NCBI GenBank assembly: GCA_048886185.1 | Contig: JBHLKY010000010.1 | Span: 78,526-110,525 of the forward strand | Source of the DNA: Candidatus Hermodarchaeota archaeon | GTDB lineage: Archaea > Asgardarchaeota > Heimdallarchaeia > Hodarchaeales > Hodarchaeaceae | DNA: 32,000 nt | Direction of reading: 5' to 3' | In this document: in pieces, positions 764 through 15,327 of the stretch | Position numbering within the stretch: position 1 is the stretch's first letter | Layout of the letters: the number at the start of each line of letters is the position of its first letter | Made by a program: the position numbers and the translations under genes | Notes under the pieces: model-generated | Seen by the model: the letters and a program-made list of their open reading frames with translations, nothing else | The model's database searches: none | What the model was told of the DNA's origin: nothing

Positions 764-1582
764 TTGAAATCTGATAATGAAGGAATGATGATGGATTTTT
801 CAAAAACATGTTTTGATTGGGCATCATCATTCTACGATTACTCTCGCGCCGTTCCTGATGACTTAATTAATAAAATCAGTATAATCTTAAAGAAACATAT
901 AGAAATATTATCTACTTCAAAAATTCTGGAAGTTGGTGTTGGAACAGGGAGAATTGCGATTCCACTTTCAAAAAAACTAAACATAACAACAATTGGAGTT
1001 GATATCTCTTATAAAATGCTACAGAAATGTCACACGAAAATAAAATCTTCTAATTCACTTCAATTGCTTCTTGCTGATGCTCTTTCATTACCTTTCTCAA
1101 ATACTCAATTTGATGTAATTCTTACTTGTCATCTACTCCATCTTTTACCAAACATTTTCGATTTCATAAAAAATTTAAAACCAATATTAGTTCGACACGG
1201 ATATTTTATTAATTTAGAAGCATACATTAATTTTCATCAGACTATTCCTTTTGTGATTTATTATGGAAAACTGGCTGAAAATGGATTTCATCATATCTTC
1301 AGAGGGGATATCGTTCGACGAAGCCTTATCATTTACTTAACTAGAAAAGGGTGGAGTCATACTCAGTATGTAGTTGAAAGTAATAGATATATTCTAATGA
1401 ATGATCTTGTGCGTTTCATTCGTGAGCGTGTTTTTTCACATCAGCGAGCTATTGCAGATGATCTTCATCTACGTTCGTTAGAATATCTCAATATGGAAAT
1501 CGAAAGAAAAATTATTGATTTATCAGAAGAAGTAATTGTACCTGCTACCTCTCGTATCAATATATTTCAGTGCCCTAATTAG
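764..1582 (+). CDS. Class I SAM-dependent methyltransferase (UbiE/Methyltransf_11-like)
   Basis: Motif I ILEVGVGTGR, acidic GVDIS, ADALSLPF..QFDVI. True start may be one of the ATGs near 785-791 rather than the TTG at 764. Confidence 0.85.
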   Translation: MKSDNEGMMMDFSKTCFDWASSFYDYSRAVPDDLINKISIILKKHIEILSTSKILEVGVGTGRIAIPLSKKLNITTIGVDISYKMLQKCHTKIKSSNSLQLLLADALSLPFSNTQFDVILTCHLLHLLPNIFDFIKNLKPILVRHGYFINLEAYINFHQTIPFVIYYGKLAENGFHHIFRGDIVRRSLIIYLTRKGWSHTQYVVESNRYILMNDLVRFIRERVFSHQRAIADDLHLRSLEYLNMEIERKIIDLSEEVIVPATSRINIFQCPN

Positions 1583-1614
1583 CGAAGAAGTGAAGTACAA
1601 GGAGCCAAACTACT

Positions 1615-2844
1615 ATGGATAATGAAAATTTGGATAGTTTATTCCCAGAGGAAAAGACGGAAAAAACCTCAACAGAACCAATTTTAGTGACCGAATTTGA
1701 TCCCGAACGTCGTGAGTTAGCAATTGCTTATACGCGTACTTCTCGTCGTTACAGTGTTCGATTAATGATTATCTCTTTCATAATCTCTCTATGTGTTCTT
1801 CTTACAAGAATTTCTGTATTCTTTCAAAACTTACTCAAGGAATTCACCCTATCGGATCCTTTCATTCTCACTGGTATTTTTTTCATTATTGGTTTTCTAA
1901 TAGTAAACGTTGCAGAGCTACCTGTATCTTTTTACCTACACTCTAGATTGTCCCGTAAATATGGTTTATCTAAATTAACAAACAAGAAGTGGTTTTGGCG
2001 TTATGTAAAAGGTAATTTTTTAAGTTTTATAATTGGTTTTCCTCTGTTTGAAGGATTCTATTGGATATTGAGAACATTTCCAAATTCTTGGTGGATATGG
2101 GCAACATTGATACTGACTGTGTTTTCTATTATTCTTTCCAATCTTATACCCATAATTTTATTACCTCGCTTTTATCAATTTGACCCATTAGAAGATTTTA
2201 ATCCCGATTTAGCAGCCGAACTTTCAGATATGACCCAAAAGATTGGTATTAAAACAACTGACGCGTTCATTTGGCGTGTAGGGGAGGTAGCAACAATTTC
2301 AAATGCAGCCCTCTTAGGTCTTGGGAATACCCGAAGAATCATTATCGCTGATACTATGCTAGGTAAATACACCAATAATGAAATCAAATGGATTCTAGCT
2401 CATGAAATCGGCCATTTCAAGCATCATGATTTTTGGAAAAGAATTATTCTAGCAAGTATCACAACTTTTCTTATATTCCTTCTCACCCATCTAACTTTTT
2501 CTCCTGTTGCAGATTTCTTCGGGTACTCATTAGTAATTGGAGATGTTAGTGGTATTCCTGCTCTCGGTCTATGTTTTTGGTTTTTCTCTTTCATAATTGA
2601 GATACCCTCTCTTTATTACTCCAGGAGACAAGAAACAGCAACAGATGACTTTGCTTCTTCAATTATTCCTGACCCCATTACAACGAAAAGCCTGTTTATT
2701 AAAATGGCGGACCAAAACCTCTCGGATATTGATCCACCTTGGTGGGAAAAAGTGTTCTTTATGTCTCACCCATCGATTATTGATCGAATCAAGCGTATGG
2801 AAAAAAAGTCGAGAACTCACAATCAATTCAACTCCTTGATTTAA
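1615..2844 (+). CDS. M48 family zinc metalloprotease, Ste24/CAAX-protease type, multi-pass membrane
   Basis: HEIGH zinc motif, NAALLGLGNTRRIIIADT segment, RRQETATDDFA third-ligand region, C-terminal SHPSIIDRI, several TM helices. Confidence 0.92.
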   Translation: MDNENLDSLFPEEKTEKTSTEPILVTEFDPERRELAIAYTRTSRRYSVRLMIISFIISLCVLLTRISVFFQNLLKEFTLSDPFILTGIFFIIGFLIVNVAELPVSFYLHSRLSRKYGLSKLTNKKWFWRYVKGNFLSFIIGFPLFEGFYWILRTFPNSWWIWATLILTVFSIILSNLIPIILLPRFYQFDPLEDFNPDLAAELSDMTQKIGIKTTDAFIWRVGEVATISNAALLGLGNTRRIIIADTMLGKYTNNEIKWILAHEIGHFKHHDFWKRIILASITTFLIFLLTHLTFSPVADFFGYSLVIGDVSGIPALGLCFWFFSFIIEIPSLYYSRRQETATDDFASSIIPDPITTKSLFIKMADQNLSDIDPPWWEKVFFMSHPSIIDRIKRMEKKSRTHNQFNSLI

Positions 2845-4147: not shown

Positions 4148-4162
4148 GTGCACACTGTACAC
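4148..4162. promoter_or_regulatory. Palindromic candidate operator GTGCACA-C-TGTACAC
   Basis: Imperfect palindrome (6/7 arm match) 10 bp upstream of the RHH start. A related copy lies at 11874-11888. Confidence 0.55.
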
Positions 4163-4750: not shown

Positions 4751-5497
4751 TTACCAGTATAGTTCCTTTGCAGGAATAAATTTCTGGGTATAATCCTCAA
4801 CAATTTTTCCATCTGATAATCGAATTACCCGATCACCTAGTGGGCAAATTGCTTCATTATGCGTAACAATGATTACTGTGCGGTTTAGTTTCTTCCCAGT
4901 CATGGCTTCCATTATTTCTAAGACTTGTCTACCTATCTTAAAGTCCAAATTTCCTGTAGGTTCATCAGCTAAAAGTATCTCAGGTTCTTTTGCTAGTGCT
5001 CTAGCAATAGCAACCCTTTGTTGCTCACCACCGCTTAATTGGGCTGGAAAATGATTAATTCGATCGTATAAACCAACTCTATTTAAGTACTCGATAGCAG
5101 TATTACGAATCACTTTTGAATCAAAAGACATTTCATCATTTTTTCCTGTTTTCACACCAACTAGTTCTAATGCATATTCAACGTTTTCTATAGCTGTTAG
5201 ACGAGAAATAAGGTTAAAAAATTGGAATACAACACCCACTTTTCTTCTTCGATAAATTGTTAGCCACTTATCTGATAATGTTGAAACATTAATCTTTCCA
5301 ACTTTTACCAGACCTGATGTCGGAATATCTAATCCTCCAATCATGTTAAGAAGTGTTGTTTTACCAGCTCCAGATGGCCCAAAGATAACGACAAGTTCTC
5401 CGAGTTCTATATGTAGATTGATTCCGCTCAAAGCTGGGATCGTGGTTTCCCCTAATGAATAGTTTTTGTAAATATTCTCGAGGGTGATAAATGCCAA
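4751..5497 (-). CDS. ABC transporter ATP-binding protein, MacB/LolD/FtsE family
   Basis: Walker A GPSGAGKTT, Q-loop VFQFFNL, signature LSGGEQQRVAIARA, Walker B LLADEPTGNLD, H-loop VTHN. TTG start supported by AGGAGG upstream. Confidence 0.96.
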   Translation of the reverse strand: MAFITLENIYKNYSLGETTIPALSGINLHIELGELVVIFGPSGAGKTTLLNMIGGLDIPTSGLVKVGKINVSTLSDKWLTIYRRRKVGVVFQFFNLISRLTAIENVEYALELVGVKTGKNDEMSFDSKVIRNTAIEYLNRVGLYDRINHFPAQLSGGEQQRVAIARALAKEPEILLADEPTGNLDFKIGRQVLEIMEAMTGKKLNRTVIIVTHNEAICPLGDRVIRLSDGKIVEDYTQKFIPAKELYW

Positions 5498-5504
5498 TTC
5501 TTAA

Positions 5505-5510
5505 CCTCCT
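5505..5510 (-). promoter_or_regulatory. Shine-Dalgarno AGGAGG for the TTG start at 5497
   Basis: CCTCCT on + strand, 7 nt from the TTG, overlapping the permease stop codon. Confidence 0.6.
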
Positions 5511-8052
5511 AGATTACTCGTTCTTTTGTGGCCTCTGCGAGATTCAGATTCAATGCTCGCCTCAATGGGAAGAATTGAGCCACTAATACACCAATGAAAG
5601 TGAGGCCAAATGAAATTAGAATTGTTTCATTACTCATGAACAATTTTACTCTGAAGAATTCTAAATCTAATACAACCCGCATGAAGAACCATAACATGAT
5701 CCATCCTAAGATTAATCCCATAACAGTACCAATTAAAGTTATAACTAAATTCTCAACAGTTACATTGCGAATAAGACGTCTTCCCGGGGTTCCTATAGTA
5801 AGGAGTGTTGCAATCTCTCGTTGTTGTTCTTGTAAATTAATATAGATGGTGTTATATACAATCGAACATGAAAGGATTACAGCAAAAACTGCTACGATGT
5901 AAATGATGAAATAAATTAAATTAAGTAAATCTAAGAAATCACTGCTCTGTTCTTCCCTAGTAAAGATATTTCTTATGTTGTAACTAAATTTTCCATAAAT
6001 TTCCTCCCGAATTAATTCTAATCTCTCCTGTGTAGGATTATCTACCTTGATTAGTATAGTATTAGCAGGTTGGCCAAAGTCATCAAAATTACTTACTGTA
6101 ATTAGCTTATCCAATCCCATATATGCGACTAGTCCGTTGAATTCATCCACAATTCCACTGATCCGAAATGAAACATTAACCATTTCAAAATGGGCTCTTA
6201 ATGGAGCAGAGCTCACTAGTTTTGTAAGGCGGGGAATCTCAAGATTGACAAAATCCTTTTCCCACACTTTAAGTTTTTCTGCTACTGGCCTACTTAATAT
6301 AATTCCACTGGGATCCCATTTCCCCGCATCAAATTCGAATATATGTGCAACATACCCATTCAAATCTTTCATTCCGATTAATTGAACCTGCTTACCTATA
6401 TTTGATCTATTTGATGTAACTGTCGCACCTGAAAGAAGGTGGTAGGTTACATTTGTGACACCATCAAGGGTATTGATAGCTCTTGCGATTTCTGAAGCAT
6501 TGGGTGGAATTTCGGAGTAATCTATACGCAAATCCCAGTCTTCAGCTACTTCATATTGAAATGCTAAGGCATAAGCCATTGATTCCATCATTCCAAAGGT
6601 CATGGATATCAATGATACCGAAACGATAACCGCAAAAACAGAACTGAAGGTTCTTCGTTTACTACGAAAGAAATTCCTTAAAGGAATCTTGTAGCCAGTG
6701 ACTTTCAGGTGAATCCTAAACTTACTTAATATTTGTTCGACAAGGGGGACTCGTCCAGTTGTAATGTGCAGTGATGGATCATATCGAAGACTTTCTGCAG
6801 GAAGAGGTTGTATTGCTCCCCGAATAGGCAGATATCCTCCAATTAATCCCGTAAAAATGCCTAAGAATAATCCTACTATGAGGATAGGATATTCAATAGT
6901 GACCTTAGGCTTGAAAGGAATTGTAAGCATCTGTGTGTACATAGGGCCAAACCAATCTAGGAAAAATAATCCCAAAATCGACCCCAAGATAGTTCCAATG
7001 AGTGTTACAATCATCGCAATTCCAAGATATTGAAGAATGATGGTTCTTCGACTATATCCGAGTGCTTGGGCAACACCAATATCCTTTCTTTCTGCTACAA
7101 CCATTCTTCCCAATAACACATACAATCCGCCCATAGCCATCACAAGAATAATTAATGGCAAAACATATCCAAATTCCCTAGCTTCTTCAATATCTAATTT
7201 GAGAACATAATAAGCAGGTTGTTTATCTCGATCTATGGGGTCACTTAATTTCAAATCATGGGTATCTTCAAGGAATGTCTTCAAATCCTCTGCTACCTGT
7301 TCTCGTTGGCGAGTAAAGAGATCAGGTTCTAGAAGTACAGAAATTTCATTTACACGTCTTGGAACATTAAGTAATCTTTGAGCAACTCTTAATGGTATAT
7401 ATATAACACCAAAACGACGTGGACTAGGCATAATATCTGCATACGATCCCATATTTATCAGATACTCTGGTGTACCAAGTGTTCCCAGAATTTCAAAAGG
7501 AACATTATTATCTCCCACTCCAATGAATTCCTGCTGTTCTAGCTTCCAATACGTTGCTAGATGCGTCTCGACAAGGCAAACATTTCGGTACTGGCTTATT
7601 TCCGAAAATGGGTCTCCATTAAGTATTTTAAATCCATTTACATTTGGCTGTGGGCGATAATTCCCAGCTTCATCAACAATACTGTATGCAACTATCCGAC
7701 CGTTTTGACGAGTACCTCGGATTTCAAATACTGTATCATAAATGATCCTTAATTCATAAGCTATTACTTTATTTCCTTCTTTTTTGTTCATAAATTCATC
7801 CATGTATTTTGTTAGATTATTATAATCTATCCAAGCATCTTCTCCTGTATCCCCTGGATTAGCTGTTTGCATAGTGAAACTTGCCATGTTATGATCAGTA
7901 AAAGCCTGGTTATATGTGCGGTTCATAACCACAAATGCAGTTATCATCCCATTAAATGAGGTTATCCCTATGGCTATTACTAGTGCAATAGTGAAGAAAC
8001 GAATTTTATGAGCTTTTAACGCGCGAAATATATTTTTAGTTGTTTTAGCCAT
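5509..8052 (-). CDS. FtsX/MacB-like ABC permease with two repeats (type VII ABC)
   Basis: Two units of TM, large extracytoplasmic domain, then 3 TM. Both have the conserved ERKDIGVAQALGY and QQREIATLLTIGT motifs. Confidence 0.93.
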   Translation of the reverse strand: MAKTTKNIFRALKAHKIRFFTIALVIAIGITSFNGMITAFVVMNRTYNQAFTDHNMASFTMQTANPGDTGEDAWIDYNNLTKYMDEFMNKKEGNKVIAYELRIIYDTVFEIRGTRQNGRIVAYSIVDEAGNYRPQPNVNGFKILNGDPFSEISQYRNVCLVETHLATYWKLEQQEFIGVGDNNVPFEILGTLGTPEYLINMGSYADIMPSPRRFGVIYIPLRVAQRLLNVPRRVNEISVLLEPDLFTRQREQVAEDLKTFLEDTHDLKLSDPIDRDKQPAYYVLKLDIEEAREFGYVLPLIILVMAMGGLYVLLGRMVVAERKDIGVAQALGYSRRTIILQYLGIAMIVTLIGTILGSILGLFFLDWFGPMYTQMLTIPFKPKVTIEYPILIVGLFLGIFTGLIGGYLPIRGAIQPLPAESLRYDPSLHITTGRVPLVEQILSKFRIHLKVTGYKIPLRNFFRSKRRTFSSVFAVIVSVSLISMTFGMMESMAYALAFQYEVAEDWDLRIDYSEIPPNASEIARAINTLDGVTNVTYHLLSGATVTSNRSNIGKQVQLIGMKDLNGYVAHIFEFDAGKWDPSGIILSRPVAEKLKVWEKDFVNLEIPRLTKLVSSAPLRAHFEMVNVSFRISGIVDEFNGLVAYMGLDKLITVSNFDDFGQPANTILIKVDNPTQERLELIREEIYGKFSYNIRNIFTREEQSSDFLDLLNLIYFIIYIVAVFAVILSCSIVYNTIYINLQEQQREIATLLTIGTPGRRLIRNVTVENLVITLIGTVMGLILGWIMLWFFMRVVLDLEFFRVKLFMSNETILISFGLTFIGVLVAQFFPLRRALNLNLAEATKERVI

Positions 8053-8079
8053 TTTAATTGCTCCTTTCTTTCTCTTCCA

Positions 8080-9771
8080 TTACCAATTAATCTCCATTGC
8101 GGGTGTTGGTATTTGAGATTCAATAGAATCTACTTTACCAGAACGTAATCGGATCACTGTGTTTCCAATTAAAGAGATTTTCTGATTGTGAGTAACAAGT
8201 ATCACTAGGATGTTTGGTCTATCTTTAATTATTTCTTGGATAACAGCTAGAACTTTTTTTCCTTCATTTACCGATAGTTCTCCAGTTGGTTCATCACATA
8301 ACAATATATCAGGCTCTTTGGCAAAAGCGCGAGCAGCAGCTACCTGTTGTTGTTCTCCTCCCGAAAGTTGAGATGGAAACAAAAATCGTTTTTCCCATAA
8401 TCCAACCTTTTTGATATATTCCTCTGTTTTAGTTTTTACCTCAATTCTAGACATTTTTCTTTTTTTAGAGAGTTCTACAGCGTACTCAATATTCTCAAAG
8501 GCATTTAACACAGGTATAAGATTGAAGAATTGGAAAATAAATCCACACTTCTCACGACGGTACTTGGTAAGCTTCCTTTTGTTTAATTTTGTTACAGTGA
8601 TATTTCCTACCTCAATTGTTCCCTTACACCTGTCAATTCCACCGATGACGTTTAATAGAGTGGTTTTACCCGAGCCCGATGGGCCTAATACCACGATTAT
8701 TTGGCCACTAGCTAATTCTAATGATACATTTTTCAAAGCGTATATTGTTTGATTTCCTAATTTATATGCTCTCTCAACATTTGTCAACCTAACAAAGCCA
8801 TCAGCTTTACTAACATCTTGATAAGTTGTTATCATATGTGGGGAGGTCTCCTTTTGCTCTGTAATATACAACATCTTCTTTAATAAAGGTGTGGAAAGCG
8901 TTGTGATTACATCTCGGCCTGGGTTCGTCACCGTGGTTAGAAGAATCTCATTCCGTACGTACACATCATATATTTTATCTAGTGAGGCAATAGATTCCAT
9001 AATTTCTAATGCTTCATCATTATCAATGAGGCAGCTCATTTTAAAAGCGTTGGAATGAGGTCCGAGAATCCTCGCGAGAGTTTGGAAGGATTTCTCTTCA
9101 GGAAAAGCTGAGAAAAATTGACGAGTGGTTTCTTTGGTCCCAATCTCGCAGAATTTGTTTAGGGGTCTCTTTAGGTGGTCTGGTAGAGGGAAAAATGATA
9201 AAACACCAAGATTTTCTACCTTTTCTATAATTTTTTCAATCGCTAAATAGTCCTCTTCAACGACAAAGAACATTCTTGAAGTTACCTGTTCAAGACTCAC
9301 CTGATAATCATGTGCAAAACCTGCTAGGAGAACAAGAGCAGATCGAACTCCTTCAGCAGTTTTAGGAAGTAGAAAAAGTGATTGAGAAGGAAAATTAATC
9401 ACCCTATTGAAACAATCCAACGCTGAAAAATTGGCCTCAACCTTTCCCTGTAAATATTCTTCAATTAAATTTAAAATAACCCGTAAAACTGGTAACACTC
9501 GTTTTGTCGGAACATTTAGAGGTACTAACACTATTGCTACCAGTGACGAAAATTCAGGCTTTTGAGACGTTAAAAAAACCATATTATGCATGTTAAATTT
9601 AATAAAGTTAATCTTTTCACCTTTCAGAATCTTTTGGGAAAAAAGAGTCAAGATATTGGCAAGGGTGCGAGAAATTTCAGGGTATTTTGTTAGCTTTCCT
9701 ATTCCAGAATAAAAAATAACTTTATCTTGATTGACAACCAGAATATCTGAAGGGGAATGTCGATAGCTCAT
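8080..9771 (-). CDS. ABC ATPase (MacB/LolD family) fused to a ~320-aa N-terminal region beginning with a longin-like domain
   Basis: C-terminal NBD: GPSGSGKTT, FQFFNL, LSGGEQQQVAAARA, LLCDEPTG, VTHN. N-terminal aa ~8-125 show a longin-like pattern (b-b-a-b-b-b-a-a); this domain call is by eye. Confidence 0.85.
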   Translation of the reverse strand: MSYRHSPSDILVVNQDKVIFYSGIGKLTKYPEISRTLANILTLFSQKILKGEKINFIKFNMHNMVFLTSQKPEFSSLVAIVLVPLNVPTKRVLPVLRVILNLIEEYLQGKVEANFSALDCFNRVINFPSQSLFLLPKTAEGVRSALVLLAGFAHDYQVSLEQVTSRMFFVVEEDYLAIEKIIEKVENLGVLSFFPLPDHLKRPLNKFCEIGTKETTRQFFSAFPEEKSFQTLARILGPHSNAFKMSCLIDNDEALEIMESIASLDKIYDVYVRNEILLTTVTNPGRDVITTLSTPLLKKMLYITEQKETSPHMITTYQDVSKADGFVRLTNVERAYKLGNQTIYALKNVSLELASGQIIVVLGPSGSGKTTLLNVIGGIDRCKGTIEVGNITVTKLNKRKLTKYRREKCGFIFQFFNLIPVLNAFENIEYAVELSKKRKMSRIEVKTKTEEYIKKVGLWEKRFLFPSQLSGGEQQQVAAARAFAKEPDILLCDEPTGELSVNEGKKVLAVIQEIIKDRPNILVILVTHNQKISLIGNTVIRLRSGKVDSIESQIPTPAMEINW

Positions 9772-9792
9772 ATAATCTCAGTCCACAATAAT

Positions 9793-11796
9793 TCAAGAAG
9801 ATTTTCTAGACTCTTTTTTTCTGTAGAAAACAATTGTAATTGTAATCAGAGACAACAGTGTGGTAATTACTTCAAATGATGGAATCTGACCACCCCCAGG
9901 AGTTATTGATTTTACACTGGTTATTTCACCTGTATTTACTAGTGCAAAATGATGGACATAACCTTCATAAGTAGCTTGCCAGCTGTAAGAAATTTCATTA
10001 TAAACAGTTGTTATATTTAGCCACTGATTCGATTCAACATCCCACCGTTTCCACTGATATTCGGGGAACTCACTAGTTTTTGATGACAATTGTAACGTAA
10101 GAGTGATGTAAATAATTTCCTCAGGTTTCTCACAATTGAACTCGATCACATATTCCATTTTATCCGTTCTTGTGGGGAATGAATCTTCTGGTATGACTGA
10201 AAGGTTTATGTATTGATCAATCGATGAAGTCAAAGTTAGAAAAAACCAAAGGTGTCCCGAGGAATTGATAATATTAATTGTTTTTGGAATGTACGCTTTT
10301 ATTTCCCAGTTCCAATTAAATGCACTTACATAAATTGAAAATGTTAATTTTGTACGATTTATATTTTGGGCTTCATCTACGGCGTAAATAATTAATTCAT
10401 GAGTTCCATTCTCAAGTTCTGGAAGCTTTTCTTCATAAGATTTGTTAAATTCTGCGAAGTAACTTTTTATTACCACATTGTTTAATTCAAAAGTAAGATT
10501 ACAGTCTTCTGATGGTCTTATCTGAAACCTGACCGATCCTTTAAGAACTGTATTATTATTTAAGTTTTGGAGTGAGAAGGATGGTGGAGAGTTATCTACA
10601 CTAAAAATGAATCTCTTACTTGCCCAGTTAACACCATTATTAATGTAGACATTTAATTCGTATTCTGTCTCAATATTTGGAATAATAATGGGCGTATTCT
10701 CCGTTATTGTTGTATTTCCATTTCCGTTCCAATTAAAGATTATTGAGCCATTTCCATTCGAAATTACCAACATTATTTGACTCGATCCTTGGATGTGACT
10801 ATTATTCGTAAAATCTTTAAGAAAAATCCCTGGGATCGTATAATCAGTGAAGTACAAAAAGTAAAAATGGCTAAAAATACCTATATTGTCCTTTACAATT
10901 ATATACAACTCATGGGAACCATTTTCAGATGGAATTATCGTTTGTAACGTAATAGAAGTTTGATTTTCAAAAGAATCCCATTGATAATTGATAAAATCTA
11001 TACCATAAGGAGAAAAGAACTGAATACTAATTATTGAACCATTTGAGATATATGAATTGTTTTTAGGTGAGATTTGTCCAATAGTAGGACCGTTATATTC
11101 AGGTGAGAGTTCAGCAATTTCAGCAGTAGTTAAATTATACCAAAATATCGAGAAGTATCTAAAATAAAGGCTTAGAAACAGGCCATCTTTCGAATACCAG
11201 TATGTCATTGGATCAAGATTTGCTTCAAATGTGATATTAACCTTCCAAGCATTGAAACTCCCCACACCATCTAATGATATTGTTTCCTCATTAATTACAG
11301 TCATGTTTAATTGACCGAATGAATATTCATGTCCAATGAAGAATCCTGATGTATTAATCCAGAAATCAAATGAAGGCTGATAAAATCCAAACCAATTATA
11401 ATAATTATCTGCAATAAATGTGTGATTGAGACTAGATCGCGTCACTGAGGTGCTGAAACCATTAGGAAATTCTTTACCTTCCCAATCCAAGCTTCGTGAA
11501 TAATCACAGGCAATCTGCCAATGAGATGCATTTATTACTTGAATAGAGGCATTATAAAAGTAGTTGGGGAAACCATCTTGAAATTCTGTGACTGAGAAGT
11601 TAGATCTTGGTAACAGGGTTTTATTGGGATTAATTATCTGCTGATGCTTAAGAAAAGTTTTGCTCAAAAAAGAATGATCATTTAGACCTGTTAATGGTGT
11701 TTGAACGGTTGATTCAGAAAAATTATTGCTGTTTGGTAGAATAAATATAAAGATTAGAGATAACGTAATAAAATAAGACTTGTAATGCTTTTCCAT
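9793..11796 (-). CDS. Secreted, C-terminally anchored surface glycoprotein with Ig-like repeats and a CTERM-like sorting signal
   Basis: N-terminal hydrophobic signal, about 25 N-x-S/T sequons counted, Ig-like segments (..TDYTIP, ..VDNSPP, YAVDEAQN), and a C-terminal IPSFE-TM-RKK tail. Confidence 0.8.
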   Translation of the reverse strand: MEKHYKSYFITLSLIFIFILPNSNNFSESTVQTPLTGLNDHSFLSKTFLKHQQIINPNKTLLPRSNFSVTEFQDGFPNYFYNASIQVINASHWQIACDYSRSLDWEGKEFPNGFSTSVTRSSLNHTFIADNYYNWFGFYQPSFDFWINTSGFFIGHEYSFGQLNMTVINEETISLDGVGSFNAWKVNITFEANLDPMTYWYSKDGLFLSLYFRYFSIFWYNLTTAEIAELSPEYNGPTIGQISPKNNSYISNGSIISIQFFSPYGIDFINYQWDSFENQTSITLQTIIPSENGSHELYIIVKDNIGIFSHFYFLYFTDYTIPGIFLKDFTNNSHIQGSSQIMLVISNGNGSIIFNWNGNGNTTITENTPIIIPNIETEYELNVYINNGVNWASKRFIFSVDNSPPSFSLQNLNNNTVLKGSVRFQIRPSEDCNLTFELNNVVIKSYFAEFNKSYEEKLPELENGTHELIIYAVDEAQNINRTKLTFSIYVSAFNWNWEIKAYIPKTINIINSSGHLWFFLTLTSSIDQYINLSVIPEDSFPTRTDKMEYVIEFNCEKPEEIIYITLTLQLSSKTSEFPEYQWKRWDVESNQWLNITTVYNEISYSWQATYEGYVHHFALVNTGEITSVKSITPGGGQIPSFEVITTLLSLITITIVFYRKKESRKSS

Positions 11797-11873: not shown

Positions 11874-11888
11874 GTATACACTGTGCAC
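11874..11888. promoter_or_regulatory. Palindromic candidate operator GTATACA-C-TGTGCAC
   Basis: 13/15 identical to the reverse complement of the 4148-4162 site. Lies in the divergent intergenic region, 78-92 bp upstream of the surface-protein/ABC operon. Confidence 0.5.
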
Positions 11889-12108: not shown

Positions 12109-12801
12109 ATGGCAAGAAAAACAATAAAACTACCTCAAAAGGATTCAAAAGAAGTAAATATGACACAGAGTGAGAAAATTAGTGATATTGTCTCATCTAT
12201 AGATTCGATTCAAGGAAAACAACGTAATCTAAATTCTGTAAAGACAACTTCAGTATCTAAAACAAAGGTTGTTATGGTTTTTGCCTTTTTTTCAATAATT
12301 GTTCTTGGTCTACTGTCATTAAGTTCTTATCCTCAAACACTATCCAATCTTACAAATAATAATGGAGACAGTTCAGATGGGAATCTTGACGGTATCTCTG
12401 AAGAGTTAAATTTTGAAATTCAGCTCTTAGATGGCCGTACTGTAATGTTAAAAGATTATGCTGGGAAACCAATTATCCTTGATCTTATGGCGACATGGTG
12501 TGTCCCGTGTAAAACCCAAATTGTTGAATTAAGAACTTTAGCAGAGAATTTTCCCAATGTTCAAATAATTTCTGTTTCAATTGATCCTAGTTATGATTCT
12601 ATGAGTAGATTGAGTCAGTATAAGGAAGATAATGAAATAACATGGGTACTAGGACGAGACATGACCCAGGCTGGAAAAGAAGCTTTTTCTGCCAGATCCA
12701 TACCAACAGTAGCATTTATAAACTCTGAAGGTAACCTAAAAGGATATAATAATGGTGTTGTCTTTTATGACACATTAGTAGATTGGATCAAGTTTGGATA
12801 A
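12109..12801 (+). CDS. Membrane-anchored TlpA/ResA-like thiol-disulfide oxidoreductase
   Basis: LKDYAGKPIILDLMATWCVPCK CxxC motif, SIPT cis-Pro loop, single TM near aa 53-72. Confidence 0.92.
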   Translation: MARKTIKLPQKDSKEVNMTQSEKISDIVSSIDSIQGKQRNLNSVKTTSVSKTKVVMVFAFFSIIVLGLLSLSSYPQTLSNLTNNNGDSSDGNLDGISEELNFEIQLLDGRTVMLKDYAGKPIILDLMATWCVPCKTQIVELRTLAENFPNVQIISVSIDPSYDSMSRLSQYKEDNEITWVLGRDMTQAGKEAFSARSIPTVAFINSEGNLKGYNNGVVFYDTLVDWIKFG

Positions 12802-12810
12802 TTTTGAAGG

Positions 12811-13581
12811 TTGTCAGTGATGTTTATCTTTGGGATTGAAGTCACGGAGTCACTAGGACTTCCTTTATTCTTTCTAGTTGGGCTTTATGTGGCTTTATCC
12901 CCTTGCCTTTTTCCTATCATGCCATTGACTGTTTTTCGAATAATGAGTAAAACAGTTACCGATGAATCTGGTAAGGAACAGCAACCATCAAAAAAAATGG
13001 TTTTTCAATGGGTCATAATATTAACTAGTGGTATCATCATAACTTTTTTTCTAGCTATTTTTATTTCAGCTTATGTTTGGACTAATTTAGGTTTCTTTTT
13101 GAGTGATATTTTTATTGAGCTTACCTTTCTTTTGGGTATATTATTGATAGTTATGGGATTATTTTTAATATTCCCAGTTTTGGGAGAATTTACTTTTGCT
13201 CGAATTTCTATCCCTCAGCGAGTTACGAACTCTTTCCAACGTGAAGAGTATCATAACCTAGATCTTTTTTTAATCGGTTTTGGCTATACTTTCATTGCAT
13301 TACCTTGCGCTTTTCCCGTGTTCCTTATATTATTGTCCATTATCCCACTTTTTGGGAATTCTTTTTCTTTATTGATAGGGATGGGGCTTTTCTCTCTTGG
13401 TTTATTTATTCCTTATCTTATTCTGGTTCTAGTAACCGCTGAAGCTAGAACACGAGCAGCTACTCTACTAGCAGAAAAGTTTCGTATTGTAGAAATTATT
13501 ACAGGAATCTTTGTGATCATCTTTGGACTACTTTTCATTTGGCCCAGTTTCGGAGGTCCATATCTTTTCTCTTTGGTCTAA
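12811..13581 (+). CDS. ccdA: CcdA / DsbD transmembrane-domain protein
   Basis: Two catalytic Cys in ALSPCLFPIMP and ALPCAFPVF, about 6 TM, adjacent to the TlpA gene. Confidence 0.88.
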   Translation: MSVMFIFGIEVTESLGLPLFFLVGLYVALSPCLFPIMPLTVFRIMSKTVTDESGKEQQPSKKMVFQWVIILTSGIIITFFLAIFISAYVWTNLGFFLSDIFIELTFLLGILLIVMGLFLIFPVLGEFTFARISIPQRVTNSFQREEYHNLDLFLIGFGYTFIALPCAFPVFLILLSIIPLFGNSFSLLIGMGLFSLGLFIPYLILVLVTAEARTRAATLLAEKFRIVEIITGIFVIIFGLLFIWPSFGGPYLFSLV

Positions 13582-13598: not shown

Positions 13599-14756
13599 TT
13601 AAGTTTCAAAAGGAAAATCCATTTTCATCACCAAACAGTAGTTTGAAGAAATAGTATCTTTTTCACTAAAAGTTTCAAAATCACAAATGGTTATATCCCC
13701 TTGAAAGTTATCAACAAGATCGAGAAACTTTTCAATGCCTTTGAGTTCAGTTCCGGCAAGGCCAATCTCATTAATAACTATTTCATTTGTCAAAACTAAA
13801 AAAAGAGTCTCAAATCGTGGATTTAATAACAGGCTTTTTCCTAAATCTTTGTAAGTATTTCGGGTTTCGTTCCATTTGGCAATATAATCATGGAGACTAT
13901 TTTGCTTTTGAGTCCCCCATTCACGCAACTTTTCTGCATCCCATGTATTCTGTTCAAGTAATTGGGCAAAACTAGGAAGAGAGGAAGTACTAATGAGAAA
14001 AACGAAGGGATTTTGATAAAGATAACGAAAAACTTGAAACATAACCTTAAAATTAAATTTTAACTCTCTATATTCTTTTAGTTCGATCCACCACTCTTTT
14101 CCTTTCCACTGAGCTATCATATCAGGTGCAAGTATTATTCCATCAAGATCTTGAAGTTGTTCCTCGGCTACCTCAGTTGCTTCTTGTAGGTCATTAAATC
14201 CATTTTTTTCTAAGAATTTCCGTAAATTAATAATACTTGTTGCAGAATGATCGCTCTCTGGTGTTTCCAAAATATCATCAGCATATCTTCGGTTCTTAGC
14301 TCGTTTAATATAACGATTCAAAATCTCTATTTCATCAGTAAATCGTCCATCGAAATCTTGATCAATCATATTCTGTAAGTATTCCAAATCTTCAATTCGG
14401 GGGCGTAATTGTCTTTCTACAGCCTCATTTCTATAAAATATAGATGAGAAACGGCCTTTTTTCCGATCAGTGCGAGTAGGCATACCAAAACAGGCCCTTA
14501 AAGAATTGGGAGTATGATATAACATAGGATATTCCCGAACGAATTGTATTCCTGCCGCTAATGCAGTATCTCGAAATAATTTTCTGTCTGGGACGTTCCA
14601 TCGCAAAGTCTCAATCGGTGAGAACTCGTCTAATCGTCTTATCAAGCTACTTAACCGGTTTTGATCAAGGCTACGTACTCCCTTCATTTCTTGAGGGTGT
14701 TTCCGTAGATAGGTTCTAATTCTCCTTAGAATTGTTTTTCGAGTTTGGGGACTCAC
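13599..14756 (-). CDS. Hypothetical protein with a PD-(D/E)XK nuclease-like motif set
   Basis: PDMIAQWKGKEWWIELK (14076-14126) followed by QVFRY, a QxxxY motif (14022-14036). GTG start 7 bp after the GNAT stop. Confidence 0.6.
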   Translation of the reverse strand: MSPQTRKTILRRIRTYLRKHPQEMKGVRSLDQNRLSSLIRRLDEFSPIETLRWNVPDRKLFRDTALAAGIQFVREYPMLYHTPNSLRACFGMPTRTDRKKGRFSSIFYRNEAVERQLRPRIEDLEYLQNMIDQDFDGRFTDEIEILNRYIKRAKNRRYADDILETPESDHSATSIINLRKFLEKNGFNDLQEATEVAEEQLQDLDGIILAPDMIAQWKGKEWWIELKEYRELKFNFKVMFQVFRYLYQNPFVFLISTSSLPSFAQLLEQNTWDAEKLREWGTQKQNSLHDYIAKWNETRNTYKDLGKSLLLNPRFETLFLVLTNEIVINEIGLAGTELKGIEKFLDLVDNFQGDITICDFETFSEKDTISSNYCLVMKMDFPFET

Positions 14757-14763
14757 TTATATT

Positions 14764-15327
14764 TCACTCCCTTTCATCTTTCAGAGTATTGACGAATTCT
14801 GAAGCAAGAATGTCCATTAAAATAATATCGTGATATTGCCCATTGATAAAATGAGCTTCTCTTTTTTTGCCCGTTTCAACAAATCCAACTTTCTCATAAC
14901 ACGTCTGTGCTCGCTTGTTATAAGAAAAAACCTTTAATTCGATGCTATGTAAATTTAGGGAGGAAAATGCAAAATTAAGTAGTAAGTGAATTGCTTCTGA
15001 ACCTAATCCCTTATTCCAATAAGCTGGATTAAAAATGACTACACCAAGGGATCCCCTTTGGGAAATCTTATTATCGATTCCGATTTCAATGTTCCCGATG
15101 TACAGATTGTTTTCAATGAGGATTATACCAAAAATATAAGCCTCCCCCTTTTGACGTCGTTCCCAAGTGCTACGAATCCAATTAATTTCTTCGTCTCTTG
15201 ATGCAATTAGTGGACCAGAAAGAAATTCTTGAAGTTCAGAGTTGTTCCAGAATTTCATTAGTTCATCAACGTCAGAGAGTTCTAATCCTCTTAATAAGAT
15301 GTTTTTTCCTTGTAGAATCGTTTTCAA
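14764..15327 (-). CDS. GNAT N-acetyltransferase, RimJ/RimL family
   Basis: ILLRGLELSD start, YWNKGLGSEA acetyl-CoA motif, NKRAQTCYEKVGF, G..YHDIILM. GGAG upstream of the TTG start. Confidence 0.92.
   Translation of the reverse strand: MKTILQGKNILLRGLELSDVDELMKFWNNSELQEFLSGPLIASRDEEINWIRSTWERRQKGEAYIFGIILIENNLYIGNIEIGIDNKISQRGSLGVVIFNPAYWNKGLGSEAIHLLLNFAFSSLNLHSIELKVFSYNKRAQTCYEKVGFVETGKKREAHFINGQYHDIILMDILASEFVNTLKDERE

Follow-up and report, generated by a model that had tools for sequence, protein, structure and literature searches.

A 32,000-nucleotide (nt) stretch of DNA from a Candidatus Hermodarchaeota archaeon of the order Hodarchaeales (assembly GCA_048886185.1, contig JBHLKY010000010.1, positions 78,526 to 110,525 of the forward strand), hereafter the window, encodes an ATP-binding cassette (ABC) system of type VII in which a fused double FtsX permease (P0003) lies between the genes for two unlike ATPases (P0002 and P0004), behind the gene for an anchored surface protein (P0001). 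Our results suggest a Hodarchaeales-specific machine, and the leading hypothesis, which we consider somewhat likely to be correct, is that it acts by mechanotransmission onto the surface protein. An earlier reading made from the sequence alone (the first-pass annotation) had described a four-gene system. The four genes are real, but the system is larger, and also takes in an RDD-family membrane protein, a ResA/TlpA-like redoxin with a CcdA-type partner, a putative operator and a pair consisting of a small regulator and a membrane protein with seven transmembrane (TM) helices.

The four open reading frames (ORFs) lie on one strand in the order surface protein, ATPase P0002, double permease and plain ATPase P0004 (Table 1), with intergenic gaps of 21, 27 and 11 nt, exactly as the first-pass annotation had laid them out. 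Gaps of this size are too short for internal promoters, and a single transcript is therefore likely. Shine-Dalgarno-like motifs precede the three downstream starts (GGACTGAG, AGGAG and AGGAGGT, the last overlapping the permease stop), and a T-tract follows the stop of P0004. The permease holds both FtsX halves, which differ from each other, and both ectodomains in one polypeptide; it has two FtsX stretches (PF02687, 104.6 bits against a cut-off of 25.5), two MacB_PCD stretches (PF12704, 58.5 bits against 27) and four plus four TM helices by hydropathy, which bears out its description as a double FtsX permease. With 4-TM FtsX modules, MacB_PCD ectodomains and ATPases of the MacB/LolD/FtsE/DevA clade, the locus is by fold a type VII ABC system, and by score it is no orthologue of LolCDE, FtsEX, MacB, ADOP or YbbP. 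The permease orthogroup has a sharp edge: some 60 clusters at 50-100% identity, all of them from Hodarchaeales-type metagenome-assembled genomes (MAGs), are followed by a next match at 26%.

Two non-equivalent ATPases are encoded beside this permease. P0002 (ABC_tran match at residues 346-496) reads GPSGSGKT, LSGGEQQQ, DEPTGELS and THN, and P0004 reads GPSGAGKT, LSGGEQQR, DEPTGNLD and THN; the ATPase part of P0002, here called nucleotide-binding domain 1 (NBD1), is 47% identical to P0004 (NBD2). The top NCBIfam matches of both are DevA, LolD, FtsE and MacB (E 1e-46 to 1e-58), all under the equivalog cut-offs. Conservation was followed in a comparison set of 19 further loci (16 same-genus genomes, one sister-family genome, two metagenome contigs encoding more distant permeases, and a gene table that came without DNA), and 18 loci in which both permease flanks are visible are called informative. 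In each of these 18, the permease gene stands between the NBD1 gene and the NBD2 gene. The NBD1 D-loop is TGELS in 17 of 17 sequences; of the two more distant loci, one has TGELS and the other TGELN. The NBD2 D-loop is TGNLD in 14 of 14 as well as in both distant loci, so that the asymmetry is fixed family-wide, even where permease identity has fallen to 50%. All of these NBD1 and NBD2 sequences retain an intact Walker A, Q-loop, signature, Walker B Glu and H-loop; neither ATPase has a non-canonical catalytic residue of the kind that marks a degenerate site, and the D-loop alone differs. The intact motifs and the D-loop difference read in the window by the first-pass annotation thus extend to the orthologues. 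A third feature that it had picked out, QQQ rather than QQR after the signature, is present in the window proteins but confined to six closely related fused forms, the remaining NBD1 copies having QQR; on this distribution it is a recent substitution and no family trait.

In a tree of the FtsX-linked ATPases of this genome, NBD1 and NBD2 form separate clades that are not sisters. Nine other FtsX-type permease genes in the genome, eight of them double-size (~800-890 amino acids [aa]), have one adjacent ATPase gene, and a published table gives identical NBDs to each of the eight type VII systems of B. subtilis (PMC11466899), in keeping with the earlier statement that a single NBD type is usual. 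The simplest reading of the conserved pair is that NBD1 and NBD2 would form an obligate heterodimer on a pseudo-heterodimeric permease; a heterodimeric pair had been proposed before, and its two non-equivalent ATPases are found at all informative loci. Both ATPases also end in a conserved ...PA-x-E/D-(I/L)-x-W, the terminal Trp being present in all orthologues, and an unrelated C-terminal domain described below (that of P0124) ends in Trp as well.

The surface protein is the first operon gene in 18 of 19 loci. Its homologues number 17 among 5.8 billion proteins, all in Hodarchaeales-type MAGs. The tripartite CTERM signal is complete, with PGGGxIPSFE (PGGGQIPSFE in the window), a TM helix at residues 638-656 and an Arg/Lys tail, and is conserved in 13 orthologues. 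With a cut-off of 24 bits, the Heimdall-CTERM model (NF045529) gives 26.2 bits when the genome is searched in six frames and 19.8 bits when the whole protein is scanned; the earlier CTERM label is upheld by the first value, together with the conserved signal, and falls short by the second. The word glycoprotein is a prediction from an excess of N-x-S/T sequons, of which P0001 has 25, compared to 11.6 +/- 3.0 in shuffles. The best-conserved parts include the CTERM signal and the membrane-proximal domain at residues 486-636, which contains one invariant Cys (Cys555). Cys159 is present in 12 of 15 permeases, and a reductase with a WCVPC motif is encoded nearby. Residues 57-236 (window 11089-11628) resemble DUF3108 or DUF3108_like in an Atlas model at a template modelling (TM) score of 0.64 over ~170 aligned residues, a lead only, with no match at the sequence level; domains of the DUF3108 type also occur fused to M16 and S9 peptidases.

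Contact between this protein and the permease, another part of the first-pass proposal, was examined by complex prediction. Docking took residues 486-636 of P0001 against the whole permease. The score was 0.60 in three runs, with a best control of 0.00; the runs agreed in at least 96% of contacts, and the predicted local distance difference test (pLDDT) of the partner was at least 75. Of 80 solved complexes, 58 reach the docking mark, as do 2 of 110 mismatched pairs; at scores of 0.60 or lower, however, it is reached by just 7 of the 80 and by both passing mismatches. This amounts to weak support. Given the conserved operon link, we would put direct binding of the surface protein to the permease at about an even call.

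The comparison of loci separates a core from its accessories. The RDD protein, NBD1, permease and NBD2 are found in every informative locus. In six genomes with contigs long enough, the genes for the surface protein, RDD protein, NBD1, permease, NBD2, ResA/TlpA-like redoxin and CcdA follow one another on one strand, with a 60-aa regulator gene and a 7-TM gene divergent upstream; a seventh genome begins alike before its contig ends. In the sub-clade of the window, the RDD gene and the redoxin-CcdA pair have moved, flipped, to the flanks and still adjoin. The redoxin finds its best matches in ResA, StoA and TlpA, all under their cut-offs, and CcdA reaches 26.7 bits with DsbD_TM against a cut-off of 27.1. 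The features of a ResA/TlpA-CcdA reducing pathway are present, namely, an anchored thioredoxin fold with WCxPC and a CcdA with two conserved Cys, and both Cys pairs are invariant. The most divergent locus, L061 (permease 50% identical), retains the regulator pair, the operator and the RDD-NBD1-permease-NBD2 core and has neither surface protein nor redox pair, while locus L062 is without an adjacent redox pair; because of these two loci, we treat the surface protein and the redox pair as accessories. Synteny therefore sides with the first-pass annotation in that both NBDs are retained wherever the locus is informative, and goes against it at L061, where the glycoprotein is missing, an absence that had been named beforehand as telling against the idea. 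One genome (G056) appeared to have a locus without permease and NBD2, but this is an assembly break, since permease residues 1-47 follow NBD1 and the remainder lies elsewhere in the concatenated record.

A further companion of the system is a 15-bp palindrome, GTRYACA-N-TGTRYAC. It occurs twice in the window, where none is expected, and in three exact copies in the 4.84-Mb genome, and it stands at the equivalent place in 13 of 16 other orthologous loci, L061 included. Loci with the co-linear order have a single palindrome, which separates the regulator gene from the surface-protein gene. Rearranged loci have two: the first precedes the regulator gene, and the second lies 77-78 nt ahead of the gene for the surface protein (54 nt at one locus, according to the ORF call). 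We read the palindrome as a putative operator that may have been duplicated so that the split halves of the cluster kept common control. The 60-aa protein, which has no match in Pfam, NCBIfam or PDB, accompanies the system with the 7-TM protein throughout the compared loci, in divergent orientation, and we infer that it may bind the palindrome. The third and only other exact copy (G000:C19:14014-14028) lies in the intergenic region between two divergent ORFs, one of 227 aa and rich in Cys and one of 394 aa, with a Heimdall-CTERM protein gene ~2 kb away.

The ATPase P0002 carries an N-terminal module of 310 residues that the first-pass annotation had called longin. Residues 1-320 have no family match in Pfam, NCBIfam or a PDB profile search, and when 24 family members were scanned with Pfam one touched Fuz_longin_1 (E 0.15). 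A model of the module built with a 24-sequence alignment (pLDDT 89, predicted TM score 0.87) gives residues 9-107 the longin-type order b-b-a-b-b-b-a (DSSP on the predicted structure). This part aligns with the Mon1 longin domain (5ldd_D) at Z 11.1 and a root mean square deviation (rmsd) of 3.9 A over 102 residues, and with MglB, Roadblock and LAMTOR at Z ~10-11 and rmsd 2.5-3 A. The models thus support a longin fold, at the level of fold, for the first ~110 residues; the longin label does not carry over to the rest. Residues ~112-320 match RecJ/DHH loosely (Z 8-10 but rmsd 5-8 A), and the whole module matches the Atlas clusters Mon1/Fuzzy and Ccz1/Inturned, which are tri-longin guanine nucleotide exchange factor subunits, weakly, at a TM score of 0.45-0.50 by query over 185-222 residues. 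A flexible Foldseek alignment with DENND10 gave E 2e-3 but a TM score of 0.22, and no DENN entry was among the top 50 of VIA searches; identity with DENN proteins is not established.

The module family is small, with 22 clusters among 1.84 billion representatives, and is limited to one order. Its main form is a cytosolic protein of 594-675 aa (P0124 in this genome), present in 24 of 24 genomes searched in that order, in which the longin-led module is followed by a low-complexity linker and a C-terminal domain ending in ...GFSRW; that domain of P0124 has weak SIS-like structural rows only (TM score 0.44). In two genomes this parent protein (P0124/P0028) follows genes for a gelsolin-like protein, a Ras-like GTPase, an Arf-like GTPase and Sua5, the gelsolin Pfam match being found in this genome only. 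We infer that the module of P0002 was copied from this Hodarchaeales protein encoded beside small-GTPase genes. At NBD1 the module is fused in eight surveyed genomes (database matches add more), split in two, a relic in one and absent in eight loci. The split forms are separate genes directly upstream of NBD1, with a 4-nt overlap in one genome and an 84-nt gap in the other, and this Rosetta-stone evidence indicates that the module truly works with NBD1; the patchy pattern as a whole marks it as an accessory. The permease tree is not rootable (the f2 homologue sits on a branch of ~10), and gain of the module is not polarised against loss. The earlier suggestion that only one side of the motor is regulated fits the sub-clade that has the module and not the loci where it is absent or a relic. 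On an unrelated metagenome contig (L059:4446-9840), genes for a PAS-domain protein, a 490-aa fusion of a receiver domain to an ATPase and a double FtsX permease lie together, with a single ATPase gene in the run; the receiver-domain fusion is an independent parallel for a regulatory domain on a MacB-type ATPase.

Taken as a mechanism, the favoured hypothesis would run as follows. NBD1 and NBD2 would pair as an obligate heterodimer, each seated on its own half of the pseudo-heterodimeric permease, with both ATP sites catalytic and the asymmetry residing in the D-loop pair (ELS versus NLD). The ATP cycle would be transmitted outward to the two permease ectodomains, which would act on the Heimdall-CTERM surface protein through its membrane-proximal domain so as to hold, release or reshape it. 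The ResA/TlpA-like reductase and CcdA may keep exposed thiols reduced, and the small regulator, by binding the palindrome, may set the expression of the whole set. In the window sub-clade, NBD1 would have gained the cytosolic longin-led module from the protein encoded beside Ras- and Arf-like GTPase genes, giving one ATPase a regulatory or recruiting input. A stronger version, in which a longin-type platform is wired onto one mechanotransmission ATPase so that cytosolic small-GTPase signalling gates the handling of a specific surface protein, we regard as quite unlikely. If true, it would be an archaeal coupling of GTPase switches to cell-surface remodelling, without known counterpart, in the archaeal lineage nearest to eukaryotes.

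Several points weigh against this hypothesis. L061 keeps the core, regulator pair and operator without the surface protein, and the core must therefore be able to work without both the surface protein and the redox pair. The surface protein also evolves faster than the permease (34-68% versus 62-85% identity across loci), and the docking score, which concerns one domain only, lies in the weak band. The heterodimer is a reading of conservation. About half of the family, judged by its gene content, works without the N-terminal module, residues 112-310 of which have no confident fold assignment, and the regulator has no family match.

The main rival, which we consider unlikely, is regulated detoxification or efflux by a module of the MacB or Bce kind, in which the core would expel or shield against a membrane-active compound, the 7-TM protein and the regulator would sense stress, and the surface protein and redox pair would be merely co-regulated. 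The persistence of the core in L061 without either accessory is what such a module would show, and an inducible response would account for a dedicated operator that comes with a membrane-protein partner. PadR regulators are usually tied to stress or efflux genes, and a sister architecture in the genome is headed by a PadR protein; receiver-domain-NBD fusions with double FtsX permeases also exist elsewhere. However, co-regulation alone sits poorly with a surface protein that keeps the first place in the operon at almost every locus and docks on the permease, if weakly, where the controls score nothing, and the cluster has no adaptor or duct partner and offers no clue to a substrate.

Two further alternatives are very unlikely in our view. 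The first is envelope maturation, in which the ABC motor, RDD protein, reductase and CcdA would process or anchor the Heimdall-CTERM protein by a sorting or lipid-anchoring route that replaces archaeosortase. Indeed, PF09721 (exosortase/archaeosortase) has no match in this 96%-complete genome, other kinds of sorting enzyme not having been searched, and the Heimdall-CTERM signal is above cut-off in at least 18 of its ORFs (42 at E <= 0.1). In the co-linear gene order, all six genomes with contigs of sufficient length carry the redox pair in line with the operon, and the surface protein has its one invariant Cys. Yet a single ABC system of this type would have to serve dozens of CTERM proteins, L061 and L062 do without an adjacent redox pair, the cluster encodes no domain of a peptidase or transferase, and the docking covers residues 486-636, short of the CTERM anchor.

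The second alternative bears on the motor, and here two related systems of the same genome are informative. L057 (G000:C12:72000-82000) and L058 (G000:C17:33000-44000) each encode one plain ATPase beside a double FtsX permease (1031 and 1139 aa). The other ATPase of each system, 607/608 aa long, begins with ~390 additional residues that form a soluble helical extension without relation to the longin-led module. The extended and the plain ATPases each form a clade of their own. The C17 system is headed by PadR and an RDD protein. Both systems differ from the window locus in having the two ATPases downstream, no surface protein or redox pair, and ATPases of other clades; a further difference is PadR as the regulator. 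Of seven RDD genes in the genome (Pfam family search), two adjoin two-ATPase systems and none adjoins a single-ATPase one; RDD thus accompanies two of the three two-ATPase double FtsX systems, and a hidden Markov model built from the RDD orthologues recovered the window copy alone. That the permease uses NBD2 homodimers, with NBD1 (with or without the module) forming an alternative homodimeric complex or a non-motor regulator, would agree with the faster evolution of NBD1 (60-79% identity across loci versus 72-87% for NBD2) and with the homodimers of all well-studied type VII systems (PMC11466899), but it leaves unexplained why both genes are kept in every locus with all catalytic residues intact, makes a fixed complementary D-loop difference hard to understand if one ATPase were dispensable, ignores the different docking site that each of two unlike permease halves would offer, and has to contend with a second independent family in the genome that pairs a plain with an extended ATPase.

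Among known systems, the locus would in its working be closest to a fused LolC/LolE or to an FtsEX-partner system. LolCDE also has two different 4-TM FtsX units, each with MacB_PCD, which together make up a pseudo-dimer of 8 TM helices working on a protein anchored in the membrane, and the best NCBIfam match of the permease is lolCE, though at 72.8 bits against an equivalog cut-off of 362. Here, however, the halves are fused in one 847-aa chain, two different ATPases replace the LolD homodimer, and there is neither a lipobox cargo nor a LolA/LolB partner (no LolA-like gene was seen in the cluster). Archaea, moreover, have one membrane. The ATPases reach 165-192 bits with LolD (equivalog, 308) and 157-195 bits with FtsE (265), while FtsX models give at most 24 bits against cut-offs of 225-255. 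The term Lol-like, used in the first-pass annotation, can thus be kept as an analogy only, the equivalog cut-offs of LolC/E, LolD, FtsE/X and MacB all being missed widely. FtsEX with EnvC, PcsB or RipC provides the working model adopted here, of an ectodomain that binds and controls a co-encoded extracytoplasmic protein; the partner in our case is C-terminally anchored and sequon-rich, with no hydrolase or coiled-coil domain detected, and the ATPases would be heteromeric. YbbAP and BceAB resemble the locus in having one chain with two FtsX modules and separate ATPase subunits. Their TM helices number 10 and their ATPases are of a single kind (PMC11466899); the window system has 8 TM helices, ATPases of two kinds and two complete ectodomains, and scores of 68.3 against 622 bits for ADOP and 14.7 against 999 bits for YbbP place it outside both models.

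Asymmetry of the motor has a precedent in TAP1/2 and TM287/288, transporters with two different ATPase domains and one degenerate ATP site. Those are type IV rather than type VII, and no degenerate site is present here, where both subunits retain the Walker A Lys, Walker B Glu, H-loop His, Q-loop Gln and LSGGE. For the longin-led module, the likeness is to Mon1-Ccz1, Fuzzy-Inturned, MglB, LAMTOR and DENN, with which residues 9-107 share the longin order (Z 10-11, rmsd 2.5-3.9 A, ~100 residues), but there is no match at the sequence level to longin, Roadblock or DENN families, and those platforms are not fused to an ABC ATPase as the module is. A GP loop motif has been described for Asgard longins of the FLCN/SMCR8 type (PMC12290439); it is absent here, the loop between strands 1 and 2 reading N-Q-D-K. 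What sets the family apart, therefore, is its heteromeric and, by motifs, fully catalytic ATPases, an RDD protein as an ever-present candidate subunit and a dedicated putative operator with its regulator/7-TM pair, to which many lineages add a surface protein with a CTERM anchor, a pair of thiol-reducing proteins and the longin-led module.

These features may be of use beyond this order. What is understood of type VII ABC machines comes from bacterial systems in which the ATPases are identical. The present family is a natural case of asymmetry on the motor side, with a fused LolC/LolE-like permease, two non-equivalent ATPases that are catalytically competent by their motifs and a fixed D-loop difference between them. 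The longin-led module has moved between a protein in a GTPase neighbourhood and a membrane motor, and its fused, split, relic and absent states in close relatives amount to a natural experiment on module binding. The RDD family (PF06271), which is widespread but uncharacterised, gains a concrete partner system; in the literature searched, no paper mentions Heimdall-CTERM or ties RDD to FtsX systems.

Table 1. Coordinates of the locus in the window and of related genes in other loci
Feature	Position	Strand	Remarks
7-TM membrane protein, 249 aa	3182..3931	-	Stop/start overlap with regulator gene; no family match
Putative DNA-binding protein (regulator), 60 aa	3931..4113	-	52-97% identity across loci; ribbon-helix-helix-like by strand-helix-helix pattern only
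Second palindrome copy	4148..4162	.	Between small regulator gene and RDD gene
RDD-family membrane protein, 138 aa	4280..4696	+	In co-linear order sits between surface protein and NBD1
P0004 (NBD2), plain ATPase, 248 aa	4751..5497	-	D-loop TGNLD, canonical; TTG start behind AGGAGGT
P0003, fused double FtsX permease, 847 aa	5509..8052	-	8 TM helices (4+4); MacB_PCD ectodomains at ~residues 43-296 and 490-708
P0002, ATPase with N-terminal module, 563 aa	8080..9771	-	
NBD1, P0002 residues 326-563	8080..8796	-	MacB/LolD/FtsE-type; catalytic set intact; variant D-loop TGELS
N-terminal module, P0002 residues 1-310	8842..9771	-	Longin-fold domain 9-107 (predicted), alpha/beta domain 115-210, helical domain 228-309
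P0001, surface protein, 667 aa	9793..11796	-	Signal peptide, Ig-like repeats (weak matches), Trp-rich C-terminal domain, Heimdall-CTERM anchor
Heimdall-CTERM anchor of P0001	9796-9897	-	
Trp-rich membrane-proximal domain of P0001, residues 486-636	9889-10341	-	
15-bp palindrome, putative operator	11874..11888	.	78 nt before surface-protein start; shared with divergent redoxin gene
Membrane-anchored thioredoxin-fold protein, ResA/TlpA-like	12109..12801	+	One TM helix at 54-72; WCVPC motif
CcdA/DsbD_TM-type 6-TM electron conduit	12811..13581	+	Two invariant Cys
Parent protein copies	L003:9440-11353 (G000:C6); L060:8001-9785		Two genomes
Split N-terminal module/NBD1	L042:1188-2935 (G051); L040:2998-4757 (G068)		
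Module relic, 60 aa	L053:3805-3960 (G063)		

Other genes keep company with the locus. Beside the 7-TM gene lie a methyltransferase gene and a gene for a Ste24-type CAAX protease (Peptidase_M48_N plus M48; window 764-2844), and their position is kept in most orthologous loci. Past CcdA (window 13599-15327), a 385-aa ORF without a family match, 49-81% identical across the genus, is followed by a GNAT acetyltransferase gene, again with conserved synteny.

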